DNA of 64,000 bases from a virus (IMGVR_UViG_3300020048_000083:19785-83784), one strand, 5' to 3'. Shown: positions 3,512-64,000, numbered from the stretch's first letter. Numbers and translations: made by a program. The notes: generated from the sequence alone by a model not told the origin.

Positions 3512-3537
3512 TCTACCTATTTTTCATAAATATTTTA

Positions 3538-10202: not shown

Positions 10203-10216
10203 ACTATTAATATTTT

Positions 10217-10825
10217 TTAAATTATTCCGCCGCTATACAGTTTAAAGAATCCGAACCCAGTTTTCTCTAATTCCTGTATATTGGTAACTGTTTTTAACCG
10301 TTTAAACGATTCAAAGACGTTATTTACACCCCTATTGATAAATAGATTACTATCCAGAATTGGTTCATCAATTATACCCCAGTGCTGTAATATAAATGCT
10401 GTTCCACTCGGATACCCTGTCGCTTTAGGCACTTTGTACCTATAAGTGGTTACCCCGTTCTTCTCTTCGTACCAAATTGACGGGTACTCATATTCATCGG
10501 TTGTACTTTGTGGGTCATAGTCATCCACCAAATACATCCTGTATGCTTTATACTCTGGATCGTCAGCTGTTATAACCGCTTTAATATCAGTCCCACGAAT
10601 AGTTACTGTCTTTCCTACGGCATAATCTTTGGCTGCAAAAGACTTTAATATAAACGATAATTTGCTGGTTGTAGTACCAGTAATAAAATCAGTTAAATCT
10701 GTATAGTCTACCGACTCGGTTGTGCCAGATAACGGCTTCAACAAGCCCATAGCCTTGCCGTCGCATTCTAACGGTATGATAAACGATACCTTATCCGTTA
10801 GCTTATTTATGTTCATCTGTATCAT
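10217..10825 (-). CDS. Hypothetical structural protein, 202 aa
   Basis: ORF coupled to neighbours in the baseplate operon. Confidence 0.55.
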   Translation of the reverse strand: MIQMNINKLTDKVSFIIPLECDGKAMGLLKPLSGTTESVDYTDLTDFITGTTTSKLSFILKSFAAKDYAVGKTVTIRGTDIKAVITADDPEYKAYRMYLVDDYDPQSTTDEYEYPSIWYEEKNGVTTYRYKVPKATGYPSGTAFILQHWGIIDEPILDSNLFINRGVNNVFESFKRLKTVTNIQELEKTGFGFFKLYSGGII

Positions 10826-12741: not shown

Positions 12742-14621
12742 TAGCAAACGATTCCACTAAATTCTTCGAACGGTTTATCGTTCTTATTACTACCCAATAA
12801 AGAATCATCTAACGCCGAATTTCCTGTTGTGGCGGTATTAGACTGACTCTGTGTAAGCGTATCAGTATATGAACTAATTAAATATCCGCCAGTTAGCAAA
12901 GAATTAACCTTCGGACTCGAATAATTTTTTATATTAAATAGCAAGTGTGAAAACACATAAAATGCGTCATTCATATACGGAAAGTCTATGCCGTTACCAC
13001 CTACTTCAAAGTACCCTATTTCCAAGATATGGCGCCAACGGTACGTTTGATACTTCTCGCTGTATACGGCGTAATTAGGTATACCAAAATATATATCCCA
13101 CTCTTCAACGTTGTTAGAAAATTTTCGAATCGGTATATGGTGAAACGGATTGTACCCGAACCGCATATGATTGTCCTGAATATCGGTAATATTACATATA
13201 AATGTATGTTCTATATGATTAATTTCAACTTCTGTAAGAGTTTCATTTGTATACTCTACCAAGCTGTGGTATAGAAAATTATTAGTGTCGTTATAGTCTA
13301 TATATATTCCGAATTCATCTGTGAAATGTTCACTAACAGTCTGAATACCTTTATTACTCGAACCGCCAGTTTTTGACACATAAACGGCACCAGATCGGCG
13401 TGACCAAGCGCCTATTCCATCCTTAGCAACGTCGCCGTCCAACAGTGTAAAGTTGCTGGAAAGTAATACAAATACATTCTCTTCCTGAGCTTCATAAATC
13501 ATTGATCCCTCTGGCATTAACAGAACTTCTGCCTTGGTATTACTAAAATAATAATCTTTAACCGCATTTTGATCAAACGTACTCTGTATAAAATTGGTAA
13601 AATTAGCCTGTACTGTCGTCATTTTAAGGTCTTCGCTTACCAATTTTACAAACGTCATATATAAATCAGTAACGGGTGCTTTATTATTTGATAATACGCC
13701 CTCAAAATAACTCTTACCCTCGTTGGTGAAGGAAAACGTTTTTTGGTTATAACTATTATTCGAATACCCGCAATTAGTAATGCTACCAATTTTTCCTACT
13801 GATTGCAATTTTTTCATATAATATTCGCAAGGTATTTTGTTGACCAACTTTTTCACAAATATGTGTGGGGAAATTACCGACAACCAGTTTACGTTTGTCC
13901 TACCAGTTAATGAAGCATAATATTCTGGTGTAATGCCAAGCTCAATTTCACCGTCGCCGATCTTTACATAGTTGGTAACGGTGCCTGACGTTGTAGCGCC
14001 GCTGGTAGAAGTAGAAACCGCTATTTCTTGAAGGTATACTTTATTACCTGTTACATAAGCTACGCGGTATGTTCCGTTTTTAGATGGGGAGTCGTTATCT
14101 ACGAGTGAAAGTAAATCACCCGCTTGATAGTTATGACCTAAATACAACAGTAAACCAGTTCTGGTTTTATTATTAATAACCTCGCTCTTAATAGAAAGAG
14201 CTGGTAGCCCAGCATTAAAATCTATGGTTTTAGTAACCCCGTCAAACGTGGTTTTAATGGTATAATCTCCCCTATCAGCTGAAGTGGGTGTTGATCCCGT
14301 ACTAAAGCTTAAAGGCGACATAAGAAACACATCCCAATTACCAACAGTACTAATATCAAAATATGTAAAGTCTGGTTTAACTATTGGCTGCGTGGCGAGA
14401 TCGAACTTTAAATTAACTACCTCATTAATATGACCATAAAACCTATAGTTTTTACAATTCAATTTATCTACATAAAACTGGTCAAGCTGATTTATACGTT
14501 TAAATACATTATACTCAGTATATGTTTGTTTTTCCGATTCAAGTAATACAGGCACAGTTAATCCCCTATCCTTGGCGTTAACCACTTTTTTAGACCTCAA
14601 TATTTGTTCCGTATTACTCAT
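12741..14621 (-). CDS. Hypothetical structural protein, 626 aa
   Basis: Long ORF overlapping both neighbours in the baseplate operon. Confidence 0.55.
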   Translation of the reverse strand: MSNTEQILRSKKVVNAKDRGLTVPVLLESEKQTYTEYNVFKRINQLDQFYVDKLNCKNYRFYGHINEVVNLKFDLATQPIVKPDFTYFDISTVGNWDVFLMSPLSFSTGSTPTSADRGDYTIKTTFDGVTKTIDFNAGLPALSIKSEVINNKTRTGLLLYLGHNYQAGDLLSLVDNDSPSKNGTYRVAYVTGNKVYLQEIAVSTSTSGATTSGTVTNYVKIGDGEIELGITPEYYASLTGRTNVNWLSVISPHIFVKKLVNKIPCEYYMKKLQSVGKIGSITNCGYSNNSYNQKTFSFTNEGKSYFEGVLSNNKAPVTDLYMTFVKLVSEDLKMTTVQANFTNFIQSTFDQNAVKDYYFSNTKAEVLLMPEGSMIYEAQEENVFVLLSSNFTLLDGDVAKDGIGAWSRRSGAVYVSKTGGSSNKGIQTVSEHFTDEFGIYIDYNDTNNFLYHSLVEYTNETLTEVEINHIEHTFICNITDIQDNHMRFGYNPFHHIPIRKFSNNVEEWDIYFGIPNYAVYSEKYQTYRWRHILEIGYFEVGGNGIDFPYMNDAFYVFSHLLFNIKNYSSPKVNSLLTGGYLISSYTDTLTQSQSNTATTGNSALDDSLLGSNKNDKPFEEFSGIVC

Positions 14622-16785
14622 TGAAATACCTTTCTTTTATAATGTTTAATGCGTTCTGCGTCTTATCGTTGCGACCAAACAAATAATACTTACCTTCATA
14701 TAAGTTATCGGTTCCAACCTTGTATGAAGAGTAAACACTATCTTTTACCAGATTCTGAACGGTGTCGGTAACATCGACAACTGAAGTTTCAAATAGAACT
14801 TTGCTTGACCCATAATTTATTGATGAAACAAATAATCCAGCTGTGAATTGATCACTTACGGCTAAATTGAATCTATTATGTATAGCATTAATATTTCTAT
14901 TGGTTGCCTCTGGCTTTTGTGATAATAACTGGGCATAATAATTAGCTGTGGGGACATTTTCGCCGTCCCAAGGATTATCACCAAAGAACCAAGTCTGAAC
15001 CGCTGCGTGCAATGATATATCATTGTCCGAACTACCGCTACCCTGAGGATATAACTCATTATAAGCGTCACCCCTATTAACACCTTCCATTCTTCTCACA
15101 CCAATACCGTATATCCAATCCCAAATTTTAGTTTGATAAAATGCTGTATCAGTTTTTGGATACCAAGGTATCCAAGTTACTTCATTAGAATAAATTAACG
15201 TCACTTGGTCTTGATAATCCTGCATCCAAAAACGTGGGGCTATTAGTGTTCCAAGTAAGTTTGGTTCCAGCGATGGATTTTTACCGTCGATAGGAATGTT
15301 ATATGCAAGATCGGAGTTTATCTTTGGTATATACGCTATTATACCATTCCCCGCTACATTATTTGGAGCGTACCTAACATCTATATCGCTAAATCCGTTC
15401 GCGTAAACCTTTCCTTGGTGCGGTCTAAAGTTAGTCTGCACAGTATAGAACCTTGGTGTACCAGTTAGTATATTATATTCAAATAACGTACTACCGTCAT
15501 ACCTGTTTGAAGTCCATCCGCCTAACATAAGGTGCCCGTTTCGGTCAGCAGGTACCCTAATACCTACCGATAGATTACCATCAGAGCCGCCAACTAATGT
15601 TCGTCTTCCGTTGCCGTAAACTCCTTCGTAGTCGTCAAAAAATTCAAATACATAATGCCCTTTGGTAGGTACACCCCTTTTTGTTTTTGACGGAACCAAC
15701 TGACCAAACTCGTCGGTAACATAATAGTCTTCATACATAGGAAGATTTAAGACAAAAACACCCGTAGGTTGTCCATTAATATCTGGTACCTGAGAATACA
15801 CGCCATACCTCTCTAATACCTGTGGCGCTAAGTGTTTATATGCTACAACCTTTAAATCCTTCGCAACTTCCTGCTTTGTAATATCCCAGCCCGCGTCACC
15901 GTTTCCAATATCCACACTGGAATCTGGTTTAATGGTTGACCAGTAACTCATATTCAAGAATGACCCAAATAAAATTGACGTTGGCACGTATTGATAGTTT
16001 AATTCAAAGTCGCACCGTGTAATACCTATTTCGTGAAGGGTCTTGTCGCCCCAAAATGGAACCACATTAACCAGTTTGTTATCACCAAATATGTTTGGCA
16101 TAGCATCCAGATCAGACTTCACCTTTACACTATAAGTCCCACCCGTGGTTAACTCGAAATTAGGGTTGATAGCCTGTGTAAGTTCTTCACTTAATTGAGC
16201 TGAAACGGTAGCACTTGTCTTGATTTCTGTTACCAGATCGTCAGCGGTAATATAGAACGATTTAGTGTCAAATAAATCGAAGTCCATATGCACATACTGG
16301 GCTCCAAGCGGAACGCCGAAGATCATATAGTCGCCAGAGTCATTTGTTGTTGTTGTAAACTTGTAGTATTTTTCGTATATTTCTAAATAGATCGGGTAAT
16401 ATGTAAGGTCACTAACATCTGGGAAGCAACCTATCGGCTGGTGGCTAAAATTAGGTTGCTTGATCCTTGGGAATAAATTATACCGTACACCATTGGGCAG
16501 TTTATCGGCTGGCGATTTGAACGGGTATAGCTGCGTAATTTCATTCCTCAGCTCGTCGTCACTTGTAATTGGTACGAATATACTAACCTTGGCGTTCTGT
16601 ACGCCGAAACCACCGTTAACGTTGACCCTTCCTACAACCACACCGAAGTCAGCGGTCATTTGAGCATACACATCGTATGCACTGACCTTTAGACTCAGTA
16701 CTTCTAACTGCTCAAAATCTTGTTCTAACTTAAACGTAACATTTTGAGCCGTATTAAGATCAATAGGAATGCGTATATTTTCCAT
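14614..16785 (-). CDS. Structural protein with N-terminal carboxypeptidase-regulatory-like beta-sandwich, 723 aa
   Basis: VVVGRVNVNGGFGVQNAKVSIF...TTTNDSGDYMIFGVPLGAQYV matches that fold pattern; directly follows the gp6-like gene. Confidence 0.55.
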   Translation of the reverse strand: MENIRIPIDLNTAQNVTFKLEQDFEQLEVLSLKVSAYDVYAQMTADFGVVVGRVNVNGGFGVQNAKVSIFVPITSDDELRNEITQLYPFKSPADKLPNGVRYNLFPRIKQPNFSHQPIGCFPDVSDLTYYPIYLEIYEKYYKFTTTTNDSGDYMIFGVPLGAQYVHMDFDLFDTKSFYITADDLVTEIKTSATVSAQLSEELTQAINPNFELTTGGTYSVKVKSDLDAMPNIFGDNKLVNVVPFWGDKTLHEIGITRCDFELNYQYVPTSILFGSFLNMSYWSTIKPDSSVDIGNGDAGWDITKQEVAKDLKVVAYKHLAPQVLERYGVYSQVPDINGQPTGVFVLNLPMYEDYYVTDEFGQLVPSKTKRGVPTKGHYVFEFFDDYEGVYGNGRRTLVGGSDGNLSVGIRVPADRNGHLMLGGWTSNRYDGSTLFEYNILTGTPRFYTVQTNFRPHQGKVYANGFSDIDVRYAPNNVAGNGIIAYIPKINSDLAYNIPIDGKNPSLEPNLLGTLIAPRFWMQDYQDQVTLIYSNEVTWIPWYPKTDTAFYQTKIWDWIYGIGVRRMEGVNRGDAYNELYPQGSGSSDNDISLHAAVQTWFFGDNPWDGENVPTANYYAQLLSQKPEATNRNINAIHNRFNLAVSDQFTAGLFVSSINYGSSKVLFETSVVDVTDTVQNLVKDSVYSSYKVGTDNLYEGKYYLFGRNDKTQNALNIIKERYFNE

Positions 16786-18611
16786 TAGGCTCTAATCGCC
16801 GTTGCGAATTTTGGTCTTATTGTAATATCTTTGTCTGGGAATCGCATTTGTAGTACCTGATTTTCCTCAGCGAATATGATTCCGTCAGTTGTATCTATTA
16901 CTCGGTTCTGAACGTCTGAATACGGCTGCGATGTTGTGTTGAATGAATAATTGTCGCCAACCTTGTTAATAACTTTCATATAGCCGATATTTAGTACACC
17001 GCTAACGCTGTTGATAGCTTTCATTATATCGCCAGTGTACATACTCTTACCCATAGCCATTTTCTGCGTGTTGAATATATCGCTCACGTTGGTAATAATA
17101 TTGGCTACCACGTTAAGGTAATTATCTTCGTTCATAAGCACCTCGGCTTCAATTGCAAGGTCTATAACCTGACCAGCTTGTACCAGCATAAAGTCGTTCA
17201 TCATCCTGTATTCTGACATATAAACGGCAATGTTTTCCATTAACGTAGAGTGTATTGTACTGTTTAATCTACCAGAGCTATCAAAAGATAATAGGTTAAC
17301 TACTACTTTGTTTTGCTCCTGTGTAACACCTACTCTGGCGGGCGACCCGAACTTGGACGGCATAAGCGCTATCATAGTCTTGTAGTCTTCCAAACTAACA
17401 GCCCTTTCCTGAGCAGCAAAGTTATACCCAATGTAATACCTTAATTCTTCGATACTTGGTGCATCGGCGCCGCCAACAGCTGGTGTGACGTTAATACATT
17501 TAAGCGACGCTTGCACGCCGCGAACGATCTGAGAATTCGGGCCTTTGTTGCTCATTATCGGGTTCGATATGTTGGTAATAACCCCGACACCAACGTTAGA
17601 CTCAATACCGCCGCCAGTTCTATATTTCACATACATTGTGGTGTTAGGTCTTGGAGCCAGACCAAGGCTTTTGTTGTTTAAGAAAGACTTCAGGTCAACC
17701 ACTCCGTTATACTGAATAAATTCGTCCAGTATATCGGTGCTATCATCCGTAGCCGATCCAAAAGTAAGCACGCAATAACCTGTAGGGGTGTACTCGTAAA
17801 TGAATCGTTTGTCAACACGCAGGTACTTTCCGTAGTATAAACCATTAGAAGACACAGGGCGCGACTTATCAACAACAAACACCTTATTTTCAGCTAACGA
17901 CTTAACTGGGTACCACCTCAAACTATCATTATTAAATTCATCATATGTGGGCTGATTGCTGTACCCGACGCCAGATTTTGATATAACACCGTCTACGCTC
18001 AATACATTTGTATCTGGAAGAATCAATTTGAAAAATGGATCAACCTGAGTTTCGCCAAACGTATAAGTATAAATCTTTGAGCTACCGTTAACAACCACGG
18101 CATTTTTCTTTATCGTATAGCTTGTTAGCTTGCCGTTGTTATAGTTAGGTATCTTAACCCTATCATAGGCTCCCGTGGCACCGATCGGCGAAGAAAAATC
18201 TACGTCGAATATAGTTTCAAATACCTGCCCGTTACCTGTAAATTGACTCCCAGCTTTTAATATCGGTAAGTACCTTTCGTCTTCCGCGTCGCCGAATACA
18301 GGCACGTCTACGGCAAACTCACAAATAGCCATACTTGCACTTCTGGTAGGAATTCGCAAACCGTAGGTCTTGGCTATATTATACAATGAACTACGCTGCT
18401 GAGCATAATCCAGTACTGTTTCCTGCAAACTTCGGTCAATATTTTGGTGAAGGTTGTCAGCAATAGCGGCGTTCAGGTCAATGTAGACCGACATTATAGA
18501 TGCGTCATTAAAGTTCTGAATTACTTCAGGATAATAACGCTTGATAAACGCCCGTTCCTCTTCTTGCAACGAAGCGAAATCTCTCTTAGAATATGAAATT
18601 TGTTTTGCCAT
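16785..18611 (-). CDS. Baseplate wedge subunit (T4 gp6/baseplate J-like), 608 aa
   Basis: YSKRDFASL, VKYRTGGGIESNV, AVGGADAPSIEELR, AQERAVSLEDYK motifs; follows gp25-like gene. Confidence 0.85.
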   Translation of the reverse strand: MAKQISYSKRDFASLQEEERAFIKRYYPEVIQNFNDASIMSVYIDLNAAIADNLHQNIDRSLQETVLDYAQQRSSLYNIAKTYGLRIPTRSASMAICEFAVDVPVFGDAEDERYLPILKAGSQFTGNGQVFETIFDVDFSSPIGATGAYDRVKIPNYNNGKLTSYTIKKNAVVVNGSSKIYTYTFGETQVDPFFKLILPDTNVLSVDGVISKSGVGYSNQPTYDEFNNDSLRWYPVKSLAENKVFVVDKSRPVSSNGLYYGKYLRVDKRFIYEYTPTGYCVLTFGSATDDSTDILDEFIQYNGVVDLKSFLNNKSLGLAPRPNTTMYVKYRTGGGIESNVGVGVITNISNPIMSNKGPNSQIVRGVQASLKCINVTPAVGGADAPSIEELRYYIGYNFAAQERAVSLEDYKTMIALMPSKFGSPARVGVTQEQNKVVVNLLSFDSSGRLNSTIHSTLMENIAVYMSEYRMMNDFMLVQAGQVIDLAIEAEVLMNEDNYLNVVANIITNVSDIFNTQKMAMGKSMYTGDIMKAINSVSGVLNIGYMKVINKVGDNYSFNTTSQPYSDVQNRVIDTTDGIIFAEENQVLQMRFPDKDITIRPKFATAIRA

Positions 18612-25802: not shown

Positions 25803-26333
25803 CTACTTTTCTTTGTTTTTTAATTTTGTTAACAATTCAATGTGTTTTTCTTTACTATCTAAAATACAACCGTCTAAATTTTGAAACAACATCGTTTTTT
25901 GGTCGTACTTAATATGTCGGTGTAGTAAATAATGGTCTTTTAGTGTTAATTCTAAAACATCCAACCAATCTTTTTGATTATACGACCAATGATGCGAATT
26001 AAACCCAGCAGTCTTTGTTAAGTATATTTCAACATATTTTGCTGCCAGAGCTTTTTCTGGATATTTTTGGTTATACTTTCTTATTTGTTCTCGTTTCTGT
26101 TCACGTGTAGGTTTATATTTTTTATAACCTAAACGATAGTACTTATCACGACCTCGCTTTCGTTCTCCCTCAACCCACGTTTCATCATTTCTTAATTCCC
26201 TTTGTCTTGTTGTTACGTCGTTCTTTGTACAAGAAATGCATTTATTCAAATGCCCATCTGACATTTTTTTATGTTCGTAGAACTCAGATAGCGGGTAATC
26301 TTTTCCACATTTAAAACATAATTTCATTTTCAT
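25803..26333 (-). CDS. Free-standing HNH-type homing endonuclease, 176 aa
   Basis: N-terminal CFKC...CISC zinc ribbon and C-terminal HHWSY...HYLLHRH; visibly AT-richer than flanks; between SSB and recA. Confidence 0.75.
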   Translation of the reverse strand: MKMKLCFKCGKDYPLSEFYEHKKMSDGHLNKCISCTKNDVTTRQRELRNDETWVEGERKRGRDKYYRLGYKKYKPTREQKREQIRKYNQKYPEKALAAKYVEIYLTKTAGFNSHHWSYNQKDWLDVLELTLKDHYLLHRHIKYDQKTMLFQNLDGCILDSKEKHIELLTKLKNKEK

Positions 26334-51906: not shown

Positions 51907-52680
51907 TTAATTAGTAACTTCAGTTATAGTCAAAACCCTACTAATCATAGGGACGACTTCAAAATCTCTCGGGTCTATTATAAAACCTTGCGTTTTGAAC
52001 TTATATAGTTGAATGTAAAATCGTTTTCCTTTTAGGTCTGTAACCTCGCTTTCATCGTCTGTTGACTCCAAAGTAATAGGAATAAAGTGACCATTTACTT
52101 GGCTATATGCCTGCAACGATTGAAACTTTTTCATCACGATATTATTAAATTCGTTAAGCTCACGCTGTCGGTAAGAAAATATCCTTACGTCATATGAAAT
52201 ATCGATCGGAACTGGCTGCGGAATTTTATATAAATCCACACCCTTTCTGTTGCCGTCCCACGTCGGAACCTCGGCATAAACATACTTGCGACCTTGCGGG
52301 ATGTTGTAAATCAAACTTGGATGTGTACCGACCTGAGTATCAGGCTGTCTTATGATTGTAATGAATGGAATTTTGATATTTTTGTACTTATCGCTGAACT
52401 CCCAAGTTTTACTGTATTCATTCCACCCTTGGATACCCATCATAATAACGGGAAGCTTTCGCTTAATAACAGTATTATCATTTTCAACGTAATCGCAAAC
52501 TATTTCCAGATCAGTATTAACGAATTCTTTAAACCCAGCGTCCAAATCTTCGTGGAGCACACCTTTTGGTAGAAATACGTCCTTATCCGTGATCATTTCT
52601 TTGATCTGTTCACGGCGCTGGATACCATCGGGTCTACCAAGGATATTTAATTTCTTTTTGTATGTTTGCGGTGTTGCCAT
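51907..52680 (-). CDS. Tail completion/terminator protein (gp15-like), ~257 aa
   Basis: IPFITIIRQ...PVPIDISYDVRIF; precedes sheath; start moved to ATG 52680, 1 nt after the upstream stop. Confidence 0.6.
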   Translation of the reverse strand: MATPQTYKKKLNILGRPDGIQRREQIKEMITDKDVFLPKGVLHEDLDAGFKEFVNTDLEIVCDYVENDNTVIKRKLPVIMMGIQGWNEYSKTWEFSDKYKNIKIPFITIIRQPDTQVGTHPSLIYNIPQGRKYVYAEVPTWDGNRKGVDLYKIPQPVPIDISYDVRIFSYRQRELNEFNNIVMKKFQSLQAYSQVNGHFIPITLESTDDESEVTDLKGKRFYIQLYKFKTQGFIIDPRDFEVVPMISRVLTITEVTN

Positions 52681-52681
52681 A

Positions 52682-53206
52682 TTAAACGCCTGTGAATAAG
52701 TTTGGATCGAGTGTAACGCACATAATGCTTCGGTAATAACCTTTAAGACCGAACCTTGTGTGTTTATTATCGGCGGTAATCTTGCCGTCGTCCTGAACCG
52801 ACCAATATTTAAAGTTATGCTCTTTATCTGAGTATCCAACAACGTCGCCATAGGAAACATCGACATTTTTATCTTGAAGCTCTTGTATAAATACTTGGAA
52901 TGTTAGATTTCCGTACTGCTGATAACGCATTGTCTGATTTTGTTTGTTGTATGCCTTGTTTTCAGCTTCTTCTATCTTCAGATTAGCCACCTTTAAAACA
53001 ACTGGCTCTAAATAACGCACATCGCGTGCATTACTCTCGCCGTAAATGTCGTCAGTGTCTGTTTTAGCGCGATCTATACGGAAAAGTGTTACCGATAGGT
53101 TCATATCGTTTTTAACGAATTCGTCTGCCATTTCCATATCCAACTTGAAATCGTCTTCGTCATATAGGAAGTTAAGTCTGGTGTTTGGATTACTTTCGTT
53201 ACTCAT
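52682..53206 (-). CDS. Neck/head-closure protein (gp14-like), ~174 aa
   Basis: DDIYGE...EPVVL...GNLTFQVFIQELQ...GDVVGY; start MSNESN at 53206 after a TATTTATG box (53219-53226). Confidence 0.55.
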   Translation of the reverse strand: MSNESNPNTRLNFLYDEDDFKLDMEMADEFVKNDMNLSVTLFRIDRAKTDTDDIYGESNARDVRYLEPVVLKVANLKIEEAENKAYNKQNQTMRYQQYGNLTFQVFIQELQDKNVDVSYGDVVGYSDKEHNFKYWSVQDDGKITADNKHTRFGLKGYYRSIMCVTLDPNLFTGV

Positions 53207-55102: not shown

Positions 55103-55696
55103 TTACAAAACCTCTTTAACCATAATATTATCGATTTCAAGCCATACAAGGTTTCCAGTATCTCCGCCACCAGTTAAAAGGAAAAATACACCTAAAAAGT
55201 TATTTTGTGAACTCTCCCACTCATATTCTACTGAAGTGGCATTACTTGTGTTTGACGCTAAGCTCGTTATAGATACCGAATTACTCGTATACGTTGTAAT
55301 CTGATTTACCGCAATACTATGTGAAGACCTATACTGAATCCATATTCTATATGTTTTACCGTTAGCGTTTGTTACGCCGAAATTGTTTGTATAAACAAAC
55401 GCCGATCCCACGGCAATCTTACATTCAACCCGCTGTGCCCGATCAGAGAAGCCGTTTACGCCATTAATAATACTGAGATTATAATTATTAGGGTTAGATA
55501 TTTGCCAAGAATCGCCAAACTGCGTTGCCCCGCTAACATTCCAGTCTGTTGTATTATCGCCATCCGCGTTTATAACCATATTACTACCATATCCTGATGT
55601 ATTACCAGTAAAGTATAGTTTAAACCAGTTTCCTGATACTGGCGTCGTTTCAAATGTTAACCTATTATCGGCGGTTTGTCTAATTGGTAAAGCCAT
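55103..55696 (-). CDS. Putative virion decoration/adhesion protein with shared N-terminal peptide, 197 aa
   Basis: N-terminus MALPIRQTADNRLTFETTPVSGNWFKLYF is paralogous to the next gene; remainder is a beta-rich unknown domain. Confidence 0.6.
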   Translation of the reverse strand: MALPIRQTADNRLTFETTPVSGNWFKLYFTGNTSGYGSNMVINADGDNTTDWNVSGATQFGDSWQISNPNNYNLSIINGVNGFSDRAQRVECKIAVGSAFVYTNNFGVTNANGKTYRIWIQYRSSHSIAVNQITTYTSNSVSITSLASNTSNATSVEYEWESSQNNFLGVFFLLTGGGDTGNLVWLEIDNIMVKEVL

Positions 55697-55698
55697 AA

Positions 55699-56886
55699 TT
55701 ATGCATTGTTAATATCATTATTGTAATAACACATTGCCGCAGATGTATAATTAATTGTACCCAATAAATCCAATACATCTGATACAATCCATGACCCATT
55801 TGCGAAATATGCTAATTTCCCAGTGGTATATTGATCTGTATTATTAGTAGCAAAATTCATGTTATGTGCGTCATCAAATACAATAATATCTTCATACGAA
55901 GTAACCAAAGAGTAATCACCTGAAGCGAGAAACACGTTGTCAAACAAGAAAATATTATCTACCTCAATATTTGCTGAAATGGTGTTAGTAGATTCAAATA
56001 ATTTTGTTACTGGTAAATTGTCTACGGAACTGTAAATGTTTAATCTTATCTTGTAATCAGTTCCTGGATTCGCTGCATCACCATTTAAAAGTATACTTTT
56101 AATATTACAGTTAGGTAATGTTACTTTTTGAGAAAGAATAACAGGCGCGGATGGATAGCCGCCATATGTTACTATACTACTTGTTCTTGTAGTTGCGATC
56201 GAATGAATACCATCCAAAGTAGACCAAGCCGAGTTATCGGTTACAATAGGTATTAAAGAGCCATCACGAAATTTGGTTTCGCTCAAGTTATCTGCAAGCC
56301 ATTCCTGAGTACCAATACATATAGTACGATAAACTTTTCCATCATTACCTATATAAGTACCACTTTGCCCATTAGTTAAAGTAGTAGTAATTTTTAAAGG
56401 TCTAACCGTAAATCCATAAGTTTTATATGTCCAACTTATACCACCAAATGTAGTATCATTTATCCATAAATTATAAGGATAAATAGTATTTTGATCAGTA
56501 CACACTATCCAACATAATCCTTTTATACCGTTAAATATACCACTATTATTTCTATTACCAGAGCCTCTTGCGTTAAACTTACTTAAATTATTACCATTTC
56601 CAGTAATCCAATATGTTGTACCTATTTCTTTAAGTTTATTTTGTGCTACAAGTCCCTCTCCAAGATAAGTAAGTAATGCTTCAAAATCAGCTTTAGCAGG
56701 AATTTTAAAACCTACAGGTGTTAAATTTCGTGCATCAGTAGCAGCATACCAATTATACAAAGCTCCATATTTTATTGTATCAACTATTTCTAATTCATTA
56801 AAATATAGTTTATGGTTATCACCAAAAAACGGACTAATTTCAAACGTTAATCTATTGTTTGATATCAGATAAATGGGTAGTGCCAT
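55699..56886 (-). CDS. FISUMP-domain protein (circularly permuted, with insertion), 395 aa
   Basis: YGALYNWYAA...GFTVRPLK precedes GNDGKVYRTICIGTQEWLADNL...AWSTL; ends AMCYYNND. Confidence 0.8.
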   Translation of the reverse strand: MALPIYLISNNRLTFEISPFFGDNHKLYFNELEIVDTIKYGALYNWYAATDARNLTPVGFKIPAKADFEALLTYLGEGLVAQNKLKEIGTTYWITGNGNNLSKFNARGSGNRNNSGIFNGIKGLCWIVCTDQNTIYPYNLWINDTTFGGISWTYKTYGFTVRPLKITTTLTNGQSGTYIGNDGKVYRTICIGTQEWLADNLSETKFRDGSLIPIVTDNSAWSTLDGIHSIATTRTSSIVTYGGYPSAPVILSQKVTLPNCNIKSILLNGDAANPGTDYKIRLNIYSSVDNLPVTKLFESTNTISANIEVDNIFLFDNVFLASGDYSLVTSYEDIIVFDDAHNMNFATNNTDQYTTGKLAYFANGSWIVSDVLDLLGTINYTSAAMCYYNNDINNA

Positions 56887-56899
56887 GTTGCTATTTTAT

Positions 56900-56949
56900 T
56901 ATAAATATTAGTTAATAGTTAATGTTTTACGAGTAACAGAATATTTATA
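56900..56949. promoter_or_regulatory. Back-to-back TATTTATA boxes in a divergent intergenic region
   Basis: Minus-strand TATTTATA at 56900-56907 (13 nt from ATG 56886) and plus-strand TATTTATA at 56942-56949 (15 nt from ATG 56965). Confidence 0.6.
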
Positions 56950-56964
56950 AAAAAAAGCTTCAGT

Positions 56965-58059
56965 ATGTTACAGATCGAGCCCCAAGAAAAAGACAAAATA
57001 TTCCGCCAAGCGCGAAACAGGCTTGGTGCCCCGTTGCGTAAAATCCAATTGGAAGACGAGCAGATGCTTACCCTCTTGGAAACGGCTACGGAAGATTACG
57101 TTGAGTATATTCAGAACTTTTTGATTGAACACCAATGGATCAATCTTATTGGGCTGGACGTTAATGAAGACGACGTTGCCCGCGCATTGATTACAAGGAA
57201 CTATGATCTACTTACCCAATATACATACGCCTACTCAAAAATTGTTGGCTTAGGAGCTGGTGAAGGTGGCTACGAGCTTAAAAAAGACTACATAATTCTT
57301 CGAAAGGGTGTCCAAATGTATCAGATTCCCGCCAGAAGGGAGATCAACGAAGTTCTTTGGTATACCCCAGCCACAATGGATAAGAGTGTTATCGACCCAT
57401 TTTTGGGTGTTTGGAATAACCAGTTCGGAGGTGAGTACATCGGATTAGGTAGTTATTACATTATGCCAGCCTTCGATATATTACTTAGGGCGGCAGATAG
57501 AAGTTTGAAAAATAGGATTATACGTTCAGAATTAGTGTACAAGGTGACGAACGGGCCTGACGGAACAAAGTTTGTTCACCTAATGTCAGTACCTGGTGGT
57601 CGCTTTGACTTCCGTAGCTCACTAATAGACCAAGCCCGAGTTTGGTACTGGTATTACGATTTACCAGCTAAAGGTGAAAAGTGTGATCTTTACAAATACA
57701 AAGATATTATCAAAACCCCAGCAGATGTTCCGTTGGCTGACATGAGCTTTGAAGAGCTGAACGCGCCGTCTAAAGTTTGGATTCGTCGATACTTTGTTTC
57801 CTTATGTAAGGAAACGCTGGGTCGTGTCCGCGGTACATTCGGCGGCAAAGTACCAATCCCAGACGCAGAAATGACTATGGATTACCAAACTTTACTATCA
57901 GAAGCAACCAATGAAATGGCTATTTTGAAGAAGGAGTTAGAAGAAAGATTAACTCGTCTGTCGCCGTTAGCCACGTCGGATCGATTAGCAAAGGAAGCCG
58001 AGAATATTAACCTCGGGCTAAGGTATCGTCCATTCCAGAAACCAATACGCTACATATAA
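56965..58059 (+). CDS. Neck protein / head-tail adaptor (T4 gp13-like), 364 aa
   Basis: RNRLGAPLRKIQLEDEQ, WIRRYFVSLCKETLGRVRGTFGG...P...MDYQTLLSEA. Confidence 0.8.
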   Translation: MLQIEPQEKDKIFRQARNRLGAPLRKIQLEDEQMLTLLETATEDYVEYIQNFLIEHQWINLIGLDVNEDDVARALITRNYDLLTQYTYAYSKIVGLGAGEGGYELKKDYIILRKGVQMYQIPARREINEVLWYTPATMDKSVIDPFLGVWNNQFGGEYIGLGSYYIMPAFDILLRAADRSLKNRIIRSELVYKVTNGPDGTKFVHLMSVPGGRFDFRSSLIDQARVWYWYYDLPAKGEKCDLYKYKDIIKTPADVPLADMSFEELNAPSKVWIRRYFVSLCKETLGRVRGTFGGKVPIPDAEMTMDYQTLLSEATNEMAILKKELEERLTRLSPLATSDRLAKEAENINLGLRYRPFQKPIRYI

Positions 58060-58081
58060 TAAATTAAACAAAATTGAAACA

Positions 58082-60070
58082 ATGTTGATATTACGAAATG
58101 CCTTAGATCGTCCTTTAAGTTGGGATGAAATGGATCACAACTTTGAAGTATTAGAGATTAATGCGTGGGTTAAACAAGGGTACGAAAAAAACCAAAAATG
58201 TTTCGTGGTAGACGGTAGCTATACAACGATCTACAACTGCGTATGCACGCATATACAAGAAGCTTACGAGCCAGCTGACGTGTTTATCACCACGTATGGC
58301 GCAACAACTATATGGGAGCCTATTTCAAGCACGTATAATGGTCAGCCGTCAAACACTGATATTTATGTTACTGGTATGACGTATAACTCGGCTATGAGTG
58401 GAAATACGCTTACCGTACACCAAACGCTTGGGTATCCAGATGTATCTGTTTTTGTACCTTCTTACGCTCTTTACGACCATTATGTTAGCAACTTTACGTT
58501 AACGGGCACAACTTTATACATATATAGAACGGGCGGGCAGCCTACCTTAACGGTAGATTTACAACCGATTATTGATATTTCAACTGGTATAACTTCAACA
58601 AATACGTACGTAACTGGCGGAACACTAAATAATTCTAATTATCATTTATACCTCAGCCGTAACGATGGAGTAATTGTTGATATTAATTTATATGCGCTCC
58701 ACGACCCAGATATTTACACAACTGGAGCAACGTTAAATGGTAGTATAGCGACGTTCAGAAAGAATGCGGGCTCGCCGTACACATTGGATTTATCATCTTT
58801 AGTTGTGACGGGTTCCACTGGTTCTGGATATAGTGGGTTTTCGGGTTATTCTGGTATAGATGGGGCGTCTTTAGGGTCTGGATATTCTGGCATATCTGGC
58901 TATTCTGGCTATTCTGGCGAAAGTAACGTTTCTGGGTATTCGGGTATTTCTGGTTGGTCTGGTTATTCTGGTTGGTCTGGTTATTCTGGGGCGGCTGGTA
59001 GCTCTGGATGGGCGACAGACCCCGAATTGATTTATGATCCATTAGCAAATATATTATCCGTTCCTAATATTGAAGTTGGTTCTGGATACTTTAAATATTT
59101 GGATGGTAATCAGGCTTCAGGGTACGTATTAACCTCAAATGCCAGCGGTGTAGCATATTGGTCGGCTGGCGGAGCTGGCGCGTCAGGATATTCTGGTATT
59201 TCTGGGTATTCTGGTACTGGCGCGTCAGGATATTCTGGTATTTCTGGGTATTCTGGTACTGGTGCAAGTGGGTATTCTGGTTTAGGTTCAGCTTTAACCA
59301 TAAACAATAATGCGGACAATAGAATGTTGACAGCTAACGGCGGAACGACCTCTATTGATGCTGAAACTGGTATGACGTACAATAATGGGTACATTACAAA
59401 TACAGCCAATGCTCCAGTCACTTTAGAATTAGATAGCTATCATTCAACCACGGCGGTGCCTAACTTTGTTATTGTTCGCGGTCGCGGAACGCCATCGGCA
59501 AAAACAGCCGCAATGACCAACGATATAATTTATGAAGAAATAGCTTATGCTATGTATGGGGTCGGTACGACTAACACATCTATTACCATGTATAAAGCCA
59601 CGCTTCAACTAAAGAGTGACCTAAATACAGCAAACCCTACCATATCTACAGAATATATTCTACAAACCCGAAACTCTACCCCAGCGGTGGATCAGATGGA
59701 TAATAGGTTAAAAATAGATACGGCGGGTGATCTAACAGTTTACGGTGGTCTTTATGTGGGTCGTCAAGTAAGTTTACCCACAGAAGTTTTTAGCAGTAAT
59801 ACAACAGGTAGTACTGGATTTTCTTATCTTGGTGAACCACCAGCATCTACAACCATAACATTCACTTTACCATTAGCCAGTAGTTTTCGAGGTAGGGTTT
59901 ACTATATAGTAAAAAATATTACAAGTAGTGGCACTTTAAGTATTGCATCAACTGGCGGAGATACTATTGCTTATCTATCCAGCCCGCAAACGCTAGCAAC
60001 GAAAGGTAAGTTTGCTATGCTACAAAGTGATGGTATAAGTAACTGGATTCCGTTAAGCATTAGTTTATAA
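58082..60070 (+). CDS. Fibre/whisker-like virion protein with Ser-Gly-aromatic triplet arrays, 662 aa
   Basis: N-terminal LRNALDRPLSWDEMDHNF fibre-type start, two SGYSG arrays, C-terminal FTLPLASSFRGRVYYIVKN fibre-type domain. Confidence 0.65.
   Translation: MLILRNALDRPLSWDEMDHNFEVLEINAWVKQGYEKNQKCFVVDGSYTTIYNCVCTHIQEAYEPADVFITTYGATTIWEPISSTYNGQPSNTDIYVTGMTYNSAMSGNTLTVHQTLGYPDVSVFVPSYALYDHYVSNFTLTGTTLYIYRTGGQPTLTVDLQPIIDISTGITSTNTYVTGGTLNNSNYHLYLSRNDGVIVDINLYALHDPDIYTTGATLNGSIATFRKNAGSPYTLDLSSLVVTGSTGSGYSGFSGYSGIDGASLGSGYSGISGYSGYSGESNVSGYSGISGWSGYSGWSGYSGAAGSSGWATDPELIYDPLANILSVPNIEVGSGYFKYLDGNQASGYVLTSNASGVAYWSAGGAGASGYSGISGYSGTGASGYSGISGYSGTGASGYSGLGSALTINNNADNRMLTANGGTTSIDAETGMTYNNGYITNTANAPVTLELDSYHSTTAVPNFVIVRGRGTPSAKTAAMTNDIIYEEIAYAMYGVGTTNTSITMYKATLQLKSDLNTANPTISTEYILQTRNSTPAVDQMDNRLKIDTAGDLTVYGGLYVGRQVSLPTEVFSSNTTGSTGFSYLGEPPASTTITFTLPLASSFRGRVYYIVKNITSSGTLSIASTGGDTIAYLSSPQTLATKGKFAMLQSDGISNWIPLSISL
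58820..59282 (+). repeat. Coding (S-G-Y/F/W/I)n arrays including a perfect 42-bp tandem duplication
   Basis: Arrays at ~58820-59007 and 59177-59282; GGCGCGTCAGGATATTCTGGTATTTCTGGGTATTCTGGTACT at 59177-59218 and 59219-59260. Confidence 0.88.
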
Positions 60071-60079
60071 AAATATATT

Positions 60080-61750
60080 ATGAGGTGGACACAGAAATAC
60101 ATTAATTTTTTACTGGATGGCTCAGAGTATTACGACTTTGAATTAGCCACCGAAGGTACGGCTATGTATGGTATTTCACTATACGACGATGACGCGGTGA
60201 TTGATATCAACGTGTGCTCTGGTTTTACGTCCACTATTCGATGGTCTGGTGCCACTATGGAAGCGTTCACCTTGGACTTTATTACCACAACAGGATTGGA
60301 CAACTACTTTGTTGATATACCAAATGCGTACAGTGGTGGAACCATAGATACGAGGATCGCTGCCAATTATACCGACGACGAATACTTTGAATTTCACCCC
60401 GTATCTGGGTGGTCAACCAATATAAGTTATGAAATACTTCCGATATCAAACTGTGCCGTCAAATTAAACGGCGGATTCTACCAAGGATTCTTTAAATTAT
60501 ATGAGTACCCATATGAAATGATGCCTTCCCGTATGCGAAAAGGTTGGACAGTTGACATGATTGTGGGGTATCCTGACGGAAAGTCAGGAACAGGAACAAC
60601 ACTGAATGACTTATTTGCTAACAATGGCGGATTTATATTTTATTTGGGTACTCGCGGCGAAGATAAATACTGGAATGGTTTTACCACTGGAGCCACTGGC
60701 GAAGAAACTATTCTGTTCAATTGGTCTGGCTTAACGGTCACCGATCCGCGGTATTTACAGTATTACCAATTCGCCCCAACAAGCGCTGGTAAAACACCTT
60801 CGCTCGACCCACTGAACCCGTCATTTAACGACGGCAATGTGTACGGTGGATATACACTCGGATATTCTTATGGTCTTGGGACAACTTCCGAAGGTGAACC
60901 ATTAAACTATAGTCCATTATTCACTCAGGGTGATGAATTTGTTACCGTCCGCATAATCAATGGCGGAGTTAGTGGTGGTACAAGCGGTAAAACTACCTAT
61001 GAATCATACGATTACAAAGGTTATTATCATTACACGAACCATTTACCGTATGCTGAAAGATATTTCGACGATAATACTATTCCTTTATATGTAAAATACC
61101 CATGGAAAAGTATTACGGATAATGCGTTCGGGATTAGAATTCGCCCAGACGGTCATATTGGTTATAGGGTATTAAGAATCGGGAATGTATGCCAAACTGG
61201 TACTACGACAAATATTGACGGGTCAATAACAGGAACTACTACGCCGATTTATCAACTGGAAGAGTCGTATTCCGCCAGCCCGATATACACGGCTGGTGAC
61301 AATGGCAGCATTAACATCACAATAGTCTTTGAGCGCTACATAGAATTGAACGATTGCGAGCTTATCTATAATGATTATCGAAAGGGAACGCTTACAATTT
61401 ACGTTAACGCTAGACCAGTATTTCGCGAAGAAAATTTCGAAGAAATTATACCGCACGCTTTAGATAGACAAAAGGAGTTACAAAACGGAGTGCCGTTTAA
61501 TATTTCGTGGGGCGGCGGAACTCAGGGACTTTTGGAATCTGTTACCTTTGGCGGAATAGACGCACCAGACAGAAATTTACTTTTACAAAACTTTTTTGCT
61601 GGATCGTTTACTGGATCGCTGCAAACATTCAAAATGTACATACGCCCGCTACACGTGCCTCAAATAATTCACAACTTTGAGTTACGAAAAGCCCAGTATA
61701 ATATGCTTGGCGATTTTGGTGGCAGGTATATATTTATAACAAGAGCTTAA
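60080..61750 (+). CDS. Virion structural protein, possibly LamG-like, 556 aa
   Basis: Beta-rich; C-terminal GTLTIYVNARPVF...FNISWGGGTQGL...FTGSLQTFKMYIRPL resembles a LamG-type ending; 10 [ST]GxT motifs. Confidence 0.55.
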   Translation: MRWTQKYINFLLDGSEYYDFELATEGTAMYGISLYDDDAVIDINVCSGFTSTIRWSGATMEAFTLDFITTTGLDNYFVDIPNAYSGGTIDTRIAANYTDDEYFEFHPVSGWSTNISYEILPISNCAVKLNGGFYQGFFKLYEYPYEMMPSRMRKGWTVDMIVGYPDGKSGTGTTLNDLFANNGGFIFYLGTRGEDKYWNGFTTGATGEETILFNWSGLTVTDPRYLQYYQFAPTSAGKTPSLDPLNPSFNDGNVYGGYTLGYSYGLGTTSEGEPLNYSPLFTQGDEFVTVRIINGGVSGGTSGKTTYESYDYKGYYHYTNHLPYAERYFDDNTIPLYVKYPWKSITDNAFGIRIRPDGHIGYRVLRIGNVCQTGTTTNIDGSITGTTTPIYQLEESYSASPIYTAGDNGSINITIVFERYIELNDCELIYNDYRKGTLTIYVNARPVFREENFEEIIPHALDRQKELQNGVPFNISWGGGTQGLLESVTFGGIDAPDRNLLLQNFFAGSFTGSLQTFKMYIRPLHVPQIIHNFELRKAQYNMLGDFGGRYIFITRA

Positions 61751-61760
61751 ACGTAATACA

Positions 61761-62264
61761 ATGGGACGATATTCAACACTAAACGAGGATATTCAGCGGC
61801 TAAATAGCCTTGCTGGTATTAACACGACAACCGCTCCGTGCGGGTGCCAACAGCCCGAGGATGGCAAAGAAATAATCAAGTCCGCCAATATGGGGGAATC
61901 TACAGATCAGGATAAATACGAAGACGTAGTTTTCTTACAAGGTCAGGAAGCCGACGAACCGTTACAGATTTTACGCAACGAAGGTCAGGACGCAGCTTTG
62001 GAATATCTTAAATCGTGGCATATGCTTGGAAGTCATATGGGTAGCTCAAACTTAGGACATGGAAGCGACGACAAAACCTATGAAAAAGATGGTTATCATA
62101 TGGCTTGGAATAGCCGTATAGGGTACATAGGGTTGCAATATGATCTTAACTATGACCCAGATGTAAACAAAACAATAGGTCTAATGCAGCAGAGCGAAGA
62201 AAGGCACCAAGAACCGCCGCGTACCAAGTGGCAGGATTTTTACCAATCAAATAAACTAAGATAA
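61761..62264 (+). CDS. Hypothetical protein, possible head-internal protein, 167 aa
   Basis: N-terminal TLNEDIQRLNSLAGI; TATTTATA at 61731-61738. Confidence 0.6.
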   Translation: MGRYSTLNEDIQRLNSLAGINTTTAPCGCQQPEDGKEIIKSANMGESTDQDKYEDVVFLQGQEADEPLQILRNEGQDAALEYLKSWHMLGSHMGSSNLGHGSDDKTYEKDGYHMAWNSRIGYIGLQYDLNYDPDVNKTIGLMQQSEERHQEPPRTKWQDFYQSNKLR

Positions 62265-62269
62265 TTGAT

Positions 62270-62671
62270 ATGAACTTTTTCATTCGCAAAAATAGCCAAC
62301 TACCTATTCTGAAGATGAAGCTGGTAAAGGACGGCAGAAATGACTTCCGAAATATCTGGAATATGTTGGAAAATTCCGCGATCACCTTCTCTATGAAGAA
62401 TACTAAGAACGGCGTGTACAAAGTAGCGAACGCGTCGGGCAAACTCATATTAAAGCCAAATACTCTTGATATCGCTAATCACGAATATTACATTGGGTAC
62501 GAATTTCAGTTGTCAGACACAAACGAAGTTGGGGTATTCACAGGTGAGTTCAACATCAAATTCTTCGATATGGAAACAAATAACTCCGAAATTGGGGATT
62601 TAAAAGTCCCAATTAGCGAAGATTTATATATACACGTGATAGATAGTTTTACGCTTGCCACAGCCGTTTAA
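62270..62671 (+). CDS. BppU-N-like baseplate/adaptor domain protein, 133 aa
   Basis: FFIRKNSQLPILKMKL...AITFSM...IGYEFQLSDTNEVGVFTGEFNIKF...LKVP pattern. Confidence 0.6.
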   Translation: MNFFIRKNSQLPILKMKLVKDGRNDFRNIWNMLENSAITFSMKNTKNGVYKVANASGKLILKPNTLDIANHEYYIGYEFQLSDTNEVGVFTGEFNIKFFDMETNNSEIGDLKVPISEDLYIHVIDSFTLATAV

Positions 62672-62722
62672 GCTGATAACTTATCTATTGTTAGTTGTAT
62701 TTATAATAAATGTTCATACAGT

Positions 62723-64000
62723 ATGTCTAACGCTAATTTAATGTTCGCGCCTTCCAGTAGAATAAATTTACACCCGACGGCTGTATCGGGTGATATATAT
62801 AAATTATATTTGTTTGCGTCGTCTATCATTTTGGTGCTACCTAATTTACTATCTTTACGTGGATACATTAAAACTGATGGGTCGGCTTGGGGGTGGGGGT
62901 ATAATAATCATGGGCAGTTAGGGGATAATTCCATAGTTAACAAGTCAACCCCAGTTGCCGTGTACGGATCAAAAACATTCTGTCAAATATCGGCAGGGTA
63001 TGCCCACTCTTTAGCTGTCGATAAGAACGGTCAAGCTTGGGGATGGGGGTATAATCAATATGGGCAGTTAGGGGATAATTCGCTGCTAATAAGCCAACTA
63101 ACCCCCGTTGCAGTATATGGATCAAAAACATTCTGCCAAATATCTGGCGGTCAATCTCATTCCTTAGCTCTGGATTATAATGGAAAGGTTTGGGGGTGGG
63201 GATATAATAACGTTGGGCAGTTAGGGGATAATTCGGTAACAAATAGATCAACCCCAGTTGCAGTTTGCGGAAATCACACATTCTGTCAAATATCGGATGG
63301 GTATTTTTACGCCCTAGCCCTAGATTATAATGGAAAAGCTTGGAGCTGGGGATATAATTATTATGGTCAGTTAGGGGATAATTCGTTAATAAACCAATCA
63401 ACCCCAGTTGCAGTGTGCGGCACACACACATTCTGTAAAATAACAGCAGGTAATTATCATTCCTTAGCCCTAGATAAAAATGGAAAGGCTTGGGGCTGGG
63501 GGTATAATTATTTTGGTCAGTTAGGGGATAATACTAATATAGGTCAATCAACCCCAGTTGCCGTTCAAGGTGCAACAAAAACGTTTTGCCAAATATCTCG
63601 TGGCGATGCCCATTCCTTAGCCCTCGATTATAACGGAAAGGCTTGGGGTTGGGGATATAATAATTATGGTCAGCTAGGAGATAATTCTCAAATAGCTCAA
63701 TCAACCCCAGTTGCCGTGTGCGGCACACACACATTCTGTCAAATATCTGGCAGAACTCCAGTTGCCGTTCAAGGTGCAACAAAAACATTCTGCCAAATAT
63801 CGGGCAATTATTACCAATCCTTAGCCCTAGATTATAACGGAAAAGCTTGGGGGTGGGGGTATAATTATTTTGGTCAGTTAGGGGATAATTCGGTAACAAG
63901 CCGCAGAACCCCAGTTGCCGTGTGCGGCACACACACATTCTGTCAAATATCTGGGGGTACATTTCATTCTTTAGCCATTGATAAAAATGGTCAGGCTTGG
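62723..64000 (+). CDS. RCC1-repeat beta-propeller protein, partial (runs off window end)
   Basis: Not in ORF track. ATG 62723, 17 nt after TATTTATA (62698-62705); open for 426 codons: MSNANLMFAPSSRINLHPTAVSGDIYKLYL...GSAWGWGYNNHGQLGDNSIVNKSTPVAV... Confidence 0.92.
   Translation, partial: MSNANLMFAPSSRINLHPTAVSGDIYKLYLFASSIILVLPNLLSLRGYIKTDGSAWGWGYNNHGQLGDNSIVNKSTPVAVYGSKTFCQISAGYAHSLAVDKNGQAWGWGYNQYGQLGDNSLLISQLTPVAVYGSKTFCQISGGQSHSLALDYNGKVWGWGYNNVGQLGDNSVTNRSTPVAVCGNHTFCQISDGYFYALALDYNGKAWSWGYNYYGQLGDNSLINQSTPVAVCGTHTFCKITAGNYHSLALDKNGKAWGWGYNYFGQLGDNTNIGQSTPVAVQGATKTFCQISRGDAHSLALDYNGKAWGWGYNNYGQLGDNSQIAQSTPVAVCGTHTFCQISGRTPVAVQGATKTFCQISGNYYQSLALDYNGKAWGWGYNYFGQLGDNSVTSRRTPVAVCGTHTFCQISGGTFHSLAIDKNGQAW
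62879..64000 (+). repeat. Tandem ~150-153 bp coding repeats (RCC1 blades)
   Basis: Seven G-x-AWGWGYNxxGQLGDN units, the start of an eighth and one 54-bp partial unit. Confidence 0.92.

Follow-up and report, generated by a model that had tools for sequence, protein, structure and literature searches.

Three proteins encoded near the end of a 64,000-nucleotide stretch of viral DNA (IMGVR_UViG_3300020048_000083:19785-83784, referred to as the window) begin with one homologous peptide of about 30 residues, which is followed in each case by an unrelated domain. The window comprises the final 64 kb of an 83.8-kb IMG/VR virus record. Since this record was rated 26% complete by CheckV, it originates from a jumbo phage of roughly 200-320 kb. 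The sequence comparisons support the peptide as a separate, exchangeable module on unrelated domains of binding type, and we lean somewhat towards the view that it acts as a docking plug for interchangeable lectin-type heads on the virion.

The common peptide and its three passengers

The proteins carrying the peptide, given with their lengths in amino acids (aa), are the following:

55103-55696, minus strand: 197-aa protein; peptide at residues 1-29 (55610-55696), followed from about residue 33 by a predicted CBM4_9/galactose-binding-like jelly-roll; homologues P0001-P0004
55699-56886, minus strand: 395-aa protein; peptide at residues 1-29 (56800-56886), followed by a FISUMP domain (about residues 36-224 and 381-394) with an inserted domain of about 156 residues
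62723-64000, plus strand: RCC1-repeat propeller protein; peptide at residues 1-30 (62723-62812); reading frame of 426 aa, still open where the contig ends

An earlier note on this DNA had claimed an N-terminal peptide of about 30 residues common to these three open reading frames (ORFs), and coordinates, motif and a profile test all agree with this claim. The motif R-x9-G-x3-K-L-Y-[FL] begins at residue 12-13 in all three proteins, as the note had stated. Scanning the six frames of the 83.8-kb record for G-x3-K-L-Y in ORFs of at least 40 aa revealed only one other ORF (56 aa), in which the motif lies at residue 33, away from the N-terminus. Between the 197-aa and the 395-aa protein, the identity was 59% in the first 29 residues and 15% beyond them, consistent with the further claim that the passengers behind the peptide are unrelated.

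For the RCC1 protein, the membership was determined with a profile built from the N-termini of the 197-aa and 395-aa proteins only, the RCC1 sequence being left out. Among the 1278 N-termini of ORFs of at least 100 aa from this genome and 80 related loci, the RCC1 N-terminus was the top non-member with 10.9 bits (E 0.021), while the runner-up reached 3.9 bits. None of 20,000 shuffles of its first 45 residues reached 10.9 bits; 15,816 of them gave a score, the best being 10.7 bits. A chance match is thereby excluded. Furthermore, the RCC1 orthologue in the related contig L084 has an intermediate N-terminus, which bridges the type found in the window RCC1 protein and the type of the 197-aa and 395-aa proteins. 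Altogether, the first 30 or so residues of the three proteins are, as judged from their sequences, one homologous and self-contained module.

The DNA likeness of the three 5' ends was modest and confined to the codons of conserved residues. This indicates that the peptide is not a recent copy and that selection acts on the protein sequence. From nine aligned N-termini (alignment A2, which is too variable for pattern scans) a consensus was derived that comprises M-A, about 8 variable residues and [ND]-[RK]-x-T-[FML]-x-x-[TSD]-P-x-[SA]-G-[ND]-x-x-K-[LI]-Y-[FL]; one Tyr is invariant among the nine. An AlphaFold2 model of the 197-aa protein, calculated from an alignment of five sequences, was poor (pLDDT 51.5) and showed a strand-turn-strand arrangement at residues 15-29, so that the peptide is probably a beta-hairpin. 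In this predicted hairpin both faces are conserved, with L/F/F/L/F on one side and R/T/K/Y on the other, which would fit a buried interface.

No match of the peptides to Pfam was obtained even at E 10. The peptide profile also matches FN3-like repeats of unrelated bacterial proteins (P0007, P0009) in the region of their B-C strands, and as a lead the peptide may therefore resemble an isolated Ig/FN3 hairpin. A candidate plus-strand copy at about 25865-25906 (E 2e-4 with a three-sequence profile), which would have been the fourth, was rejected as a chance match, as it lies antisense inside a minus-strand gene and disappeared with the nine-sequence profile.

The passengers begin right after the peptide: the CBM fold sets in at residue 33, the FISUMP domain at about residue 36, and the RCC1 propeller at about residue 30 with a first blade that is degenerate. 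The peptide is therefore not part of the passenger folds. The propeller had been recognised correctly: RCC1 repeats were matched in Pfam with an E of 8e-93, and WD40_RLD gave 312 bits with seven RCC1 stretches (PF00415 / PF25390), above the curated cut-off. For the 395-aa protein, FISUMP (Fib_succ_major, PF09603) was identified with an E of 5e-19 and 69.7 bits compared to a curated cut-off of 33.9. The earlier note had described this domain as permuted and bearing an insert. While the insertion of about 156 residues (about 225-380, before the last strand) was found, the permutation was not, since the domain aligns colinearly with the 243-aa relative P0012.

The passenger of the 197-aa protein, formerly described as an unknown beta-domain, reads as CBM4_9-like. 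It gave no Pfam match even at E 10, including CBM_4_9 (PF02018), but compared to CBM_4_9 clusters it scored 0.94 in Atlas features, and its predicted structure reached TM scores of 0.66-0.75 over residues 33-197. By eye, the start and end motifs of CBM4_9-type jelly rolls are also present. All passengers are thus assigned to ligand-binding folds that usually work as single domains.

Neither the 197-aa nor the 395-aa protein comprises the N-terminal hydrophobic core of about 10-20 residues expected for a Sec/Tat signal peptide. A hydrophobic stretch following the peptide in the RCC1 protein was rejected as a signal peptide, as it aligns with a degenerate RCC1 blade.

Exchange of the module among related phages

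Further members of the family were recovered by a search with the 197-aa protein and by a word-indexed profile search from the nine N-termini, and the respective contigs were fetched. The peptide was observed in the relatives L081-L084, L086, L087 and L088. For five of these metagenomic contigs the carriers were tabulated, and every listed carrier begins with the peptide:

L086 (200 kb, near-identical to the window): the same 197-aa and 395-aa proteins; a 282-aa RCC1 protein
L084: 197-aa protein; 405-aa FISUMP protein; RCC1 gene with the intermediate N-terminus
L081 (226 kb): 243-aa FISUMP protein, 198-aa protein and 413-aa leucine-rich repeat (LRR)-like protein; RCC1 gene absent
L087: 468-aa tandem-FISUMP protein; 197-aa protein
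L088: start of a 197-aa-type gene adjoining the gp13-like gene

Further N-terminal occurrences on different passengers were thus found by profile in related phages, that is on the FISUMP proteins of 243 aa (P0012), 405 aa (P0013) and 468 aa (P0006, tandem), on the LRR-like 413-aa protein (P0015), on P0014 and on the RCC1 protein of L084. The outcome that the earlier note had named as refuting its claim, a profile without further hits and a chance RCC1 match, was therefore not observed. In all, the five contigs show the peptide on five types of passenger, comprising a CBM4_9-like jelly roll, FISUMP in three architectures, RCC1 propellers and the LRR-like protein. The LRR assignment of the 413-aa protein results from direct reading, while Pfam gives only a weak match to the FNIP repeat (E 0.026). 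The number of peptide-bearing genes is exactly three in every genome examined (L081, L084, L086 and the window), and in the cassette of L081 the LRR-like carrier is found instead of the missing RCC1 gene.

The identities of peptide and passenger were not coupled. Compared to the 468-aa protein of L087, the window 395-aa protein showed 93% identity in the peptide and 31% in the remainder, whereas compared to its 405-aa orthologue in L084 the peptide showed 37% and the remainder 55%. Moreover, the 395-aa peptide is nearer to the 197-aa type (59-62%, the upper value being that to the 197-aa orthologue of L084) than to the other peptides linked to FISUMP, with which it shares 33-37% identity. The junction was constant and lies directly after K-[LI]-Y-[FL]. 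Since peptide and passenger identities diverge independently, a shuffling of modules at a fixed junction is indicated, and the claim of an interchangeable module put forward in the earlier note is borne out by the same peptide standing in front of unrelated passengers.

The peptide was absent from 80 more distant loci and from five whole relatives, one of which is a complete genome of 321 kb. An exhaustive HMMER profile search against 1.84 billion representatives returned only family members and repeat proteins with FN3-like units that resemble the hairpin. A pattern scan of IMG/VR (A1) gave no relative, and the scan of JGI metagenomes gave one further family member (L088) together with two chance matches in lipoprotein signal peptidase genes. 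Confined to one sub-clade in these searches, the peptide is a young, lineage-restricted module.

Two observations concern the passengers in these relatives. The RCC1 gene comprises 282 aa in the near-identical L086 (L086:10001-10849) and at least 426 aa in the window, with near-identical blades; this difference in size could originate from a variable number of repeats or from an assembly effect. The window contig ends within the RCC1 repeats. In L086 the next gene after it (L086:10913-11638) encodes a Sulfotransfer_1 protein. A homologue of the CBM-like domain with 42% identity, P0004 (L085:2-900), shows a different or very divergent N-terminus; its gene, on an unrelated 10-kb contig, is immediately preceded by a collagen-like gene and followed by large genes for glycosyltransferases.

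Genomic setting and a candidate acceptor

Besides the T4 gp13-like neck protein, the record encodes a sheath (phrog_23, E 1e-51), gp25 and a gp6-like wedge protein as markers of a myovirus. A megablast of the region against cultured phages gave no match, and the best cultured-phage match of the gp13-like protein, from Microcystis phage Mel-JY01, showed 23% identity. For the gp13-like gene 404 more distant relatives were present in IMG/VR, of which 80 loci were fetched for comparison. In these distant relatives a backbone of p179, SNF2 helicase, gp13-like protein, p556, p133 and DNA polymerase is kept, while the peptide-carrier genes occupy variable slots of it. Around the carriers the following features were determined:

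56900-56907, minus strand: TATTTATA box, preceding the 395-aa gene by 13 nt
56965-58059, plus strand: T4 gp13-like neck protein, divergent from the 395-aa/197-aa pair; PF26809 matched on its orthologues
58082-60070, plus strand: 662-aa collagen-like fibre protein with collagen and tail-fibre PHROG matches and its own 86-residue N-terminal anchor module
60080-61750, plus strand: 556-aa conserved protein, which follows gp13 in relatives; tblastn matches to 37 loci; possible LamG/ConA-like C-terminal part
61761-62264, plus strand: 167-aa acidic protein behind its own TATTTATA box; also in L081, L084 and L086
62270-62671, plus strand: 133-aa Ig-like protein (p133), directly upstream of the RCC1 gene
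62698-62705, plus strand: TATTTATA box, preceding the RCC1 gene by 17 nt

The carriers thus sit between or beside the gp13-like neck gene, the collagen-like fibre and the sheath, that is in a neck/fibre module. As had been noticed before, two of them lie behind TATTTATA boxes and the third, the 197-aa gene, begins 2 nt past the stop of the 395-aa gene and is coupled to it. Exact TATTTATA was not over-represented overall (18 matches compared to 12.3 expected). Nonetheless, 8 of the 18 boxes are on the coding strand and precede a gene start by no more than 60 nt (binomial P 5e-10). The genes behind them are those for the sheath, for the gp13-like, 167-aa, 395-aa and RCC1 proteins and for a 163-aa protein, the last of which starts at 48140 and lies downstream of the sheath gene. 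We infer that the box is a late promoter.

The small protein p133 gave an AlphaFold2 model with a pLDDT of 85.5. Its fold matched in VIA residues 18-126 of TP901-1 BppU (Z 7.8), the baseplate of phage NF5, DT57C and T5 p132 (Z 7.5) and the baseplate of 80alpha. The top five matches were all phage baseplate or collar chains with Z of 7.5-7.8, followed by antibody domains at about 7.3. Matches in BFVD carried the names 'BppU domain', 'tail protein' and 'neck passage structure'. No Pfam match was obtained, and a PDB sequence search with the p133 profile returned nothing. The label BppU-N-like, which the protein had been given earlier, therefore holds at the level of the fold, with a small margin over generic Ig domains. 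By its predicted fold and its position, p133 is the leading candidate for an acceptor of the peptide.

Among the other neighbours, the 167-aa protein is the only one that shares the sub-clade restriction of the peptide, being absent from the 80 loci and the five whole relatives. For the 556-aa protein an Atlas lead to Laminin_G_3 with scores of 0.94-0.95 was obtained. The 662-aa fibre was rejected as co-occurring with the peptide, as its N-terminal 86 residues are present in distant relatives without the peptide. Residues 2-86 of this fibre (58082-58340, plus strand) represent a second, conventional anchor module, which recurs with 36-43% identity at the start of fibre-size ORFs (528, 530, 740, 792 and 2048 aa) in distant relatives; two of these ORFs are tandem copies in the complete 321-kb genome.

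Further observations were made apart from the carriers. At the end of the baseplate module (window 1-858, minus strand, plus the 700 bases before; genome 19085-20642) a 109-aa and a 392-aa protein lie in tandem and have an N-terminus of about 50 residues in common (blastp E 9e-6). An adjoining 883-aa protein looks similar by eye, and this N-terminus may be another shared handle. At window positions 51907-52866 (minus strand) the longest ORF of 319 aa overlaps the upstream 179-aa gene, while the gene calls of relatives use a 257-aa form starting at about 52680. In L086, an IS605 OrfB/TnpB (Cas12f1-like) gene (L086:18139-19299) lies about 3 kb beyond the end of the DNA polymerase gene.

Possible function of the peptide

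A docking function is suggested by the self-contained N-terminal element, the conservation on both faces of the predicted hairpin, the exchangeable heads and the location in the neck/fibre module. Recombination has joined the peptide, always at the one junction, to binding domains that are non-fibrous and unrelated to each other (CBM4_9-like, FISUMP and RCC1, and an LRR-like one in a relative). The peptide would then attach all of these heads to one kind of acceptor site, situated on the tail, the neck or the baseplate of the jumbo myovirus, and the particle would thereby carry a changeable set of glycan or surface binders. The docking proposal of the earlier note is thus partly supported: the shuffling of the modules was observed, while the docking on the virion is inferred.

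Several points weigh against this interpretation. The presence of the carriers in virions, the binding of the peptide to an acceptor and the identity of this acceptor are all putative. The poor model of the 197-aa protein makes the hairpin a weak prediction. The passengers are globular and probably monomeric, unlike the trimeric spikes of known docking-peptide systems. The protein p133 is equally present (about 45-50% identity) in relatives without the peptide, which for its role as a partner argues neither way. Finally, and weakly, no T4gp10-like branching domain was found in the proteins of the baseplate module (window 860-18611) by Pfam and PHROGs scans, which gave gp25, the gp6-like wedge and the sheath only, most of the large proteins matching nothing.

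It appears unlikely that the peptide is instead an element of oligomerisation or assembly, by which each passenger would form a homotrimer or the three passengers of one genome a heterotrimer. Short beta-hairpins are able to form intertwined trimeric necks in fibre proteins, and the constant number of three carriers, with the LRR-like gene in L081 where RCC1 is missing, would suit such an assembly. However, with most of the contigs incomplete, chance could account for the number of three, and CBM, propeller and LRR domains are usually monomeric. Moreover, the window 197-aa and 395-aa peptides are of one subtype (59% identical to each other, and 62% to the 197-aa orthologue of L084), which points to interchangeable copies and not to complementary chains.

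Clearly improbable is a tag for sorting or packaging, either as a capsid-targeting sequence for head-internal proteins or as a signal for ejection or modification. The internal proteins of T4 have shared N-terminal targeting peptides on otherwise unrelated proteins, and jumbo phages, to which the record belongs, are a group rich in head-internal proteins. In addition, one Tyr of the peptide is invariant, and a sulfotransferase gene lies behind the RCC1 gene of L086; yet L081 has three peptide-bearing genes without a sulfotransferase. Lectin-type passengers make little sense within a capsid, and a capsid-targeting sequence of the T4 type was rejected, since the Glu of the protease cleavage motif is replaced by H, K or V in 3 of the 9 peptides.

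Just as doubtful is a role outside the virion, with the carriers working within or on the infected cell; by attaching to envelope glycans they might, for instance, serve exclusion or the timing of lysis. Their common N-terminus would in that case be what is left of a tandem duplication, or else an element of translation or expression. In favour of this, the virion location of the carriers is itself putative, the 197-aa and 395-aa genes lie next to each other, as a duplication would leave them, and the CBM-domain homologue P0004 is found among glycosyltransferase genes. On the other hand, the peptide retains 60-70% identity between genomes while the passengers behind it are exchanged at a single junction, and the third carrier lies 6 kb off on the opposite strand. 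The modest DNA likeness, restricted to the codons of conserved residues, points to selection on the protein sequence, and the 197-aa and 395-aa proteins are without a hydrophobic segment resembling a signal peptide.

With regard to docking, the conserved short N-terminus on otherwise unrelated proteins of one phage group, as observed for the nine N-termini, is also the hallmark of the described anchor-branch systems, which comprise K1-5/K1E/SP6, the KP32, KP34, Menlow and PhiK64-1 groups of Klebsiella phages and G7C gp63.1/gp66 (PMC6872550; PMC13352976). In K1-5 and SP6, the secondary receptor-binding proteins are attached to a T4gp10-like domain by N-terminal peptides of 7-11 residues (PMC6872550), and in the Klebsiella phages KP32 and KP34 longer 'conserved peptides' serve the same role (Latka et al. 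2019, PMC6872550). There, too, the conserved sequence (7 to some tens of residues) is combined with unrelated distal parts swapped by recombination, and several such proteins are encoded per genome. In contrast to the trimeric tailspikes and depolymerases of these systems, small globular lectin-type domains are fused straight to the peptide here, each passenger starting within about 6 residues of it. Furthermore, the peptide sequence is unrelated, no T4gp10-like acceptor was detected in the scans mentioned above, and the system is a putative one.

A second comparison concerns the Ig-like neighbour. In T5, about 50 N-terminal residues of pb1, the L-shaped tail fibre, intertwine with the Ig-like collar protein p132, whose fold resembles BppU-N (Linares et al. 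2023, PMC10038345). As in T5 (pb1/p132) and TP901-1 (BppU/BppL), a small protein with a BppU-N-type Ig fold is encoded beside the adhesin genes in the window, and the T5 fibre N-terminus serves as an attachment element in the way proposed here for the peptide. Unlike these siphoviruses, the window phage is a myovirus, and p133 shows no sequence similarity to their proteins and a fold match barely above generic Ig domains. Lactococcal accessory modules such as BppA of Tuc2009 and the neck passage structure are likewise dispensable and variable lectin-type modules on baseplate or neck; there, however, the binding modules are domains of larger structural proteins, while here they are small separate proteins with a common 30-residue plug.

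A more specific form of the docking interpretation can be formulated from this comparison, although we regard it as a rather long shot. The peptide could be an incomplete B-C hairpin of Ig/FN3 type, which completes or intercalates into a ring of p133 at the neck or baseplate, so that each particle would bear a defined set of three monomeric lectin heads that differ from one another, a CBM, a FISUMP and either a propeller or an LRR head. Such a strand-complementation 'socket' for non-fibrous adhesins would be distinct from branching of the T4gp10 type.

The principle of docking by a short N-terminal peptide is already known. The present case would be a variant of it: known for trimeric tailspikes in coliphage and Klebsiella podoviruses, docking would now extend to lectin domains of monomer type and to a myovirus lineage unrelated to those phages. 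If the peptide is indeed a plug, it would represent a minimal 30-residue handle by which uncultured freshwater-type jumbo myoviruses mount small exchangeable glycan-binding heads. In consequence, host-surface specificity could be read from metagenomes by means of the heads behind the handle, and the handle itself would be a compact natural scaffold for display on phage particles.

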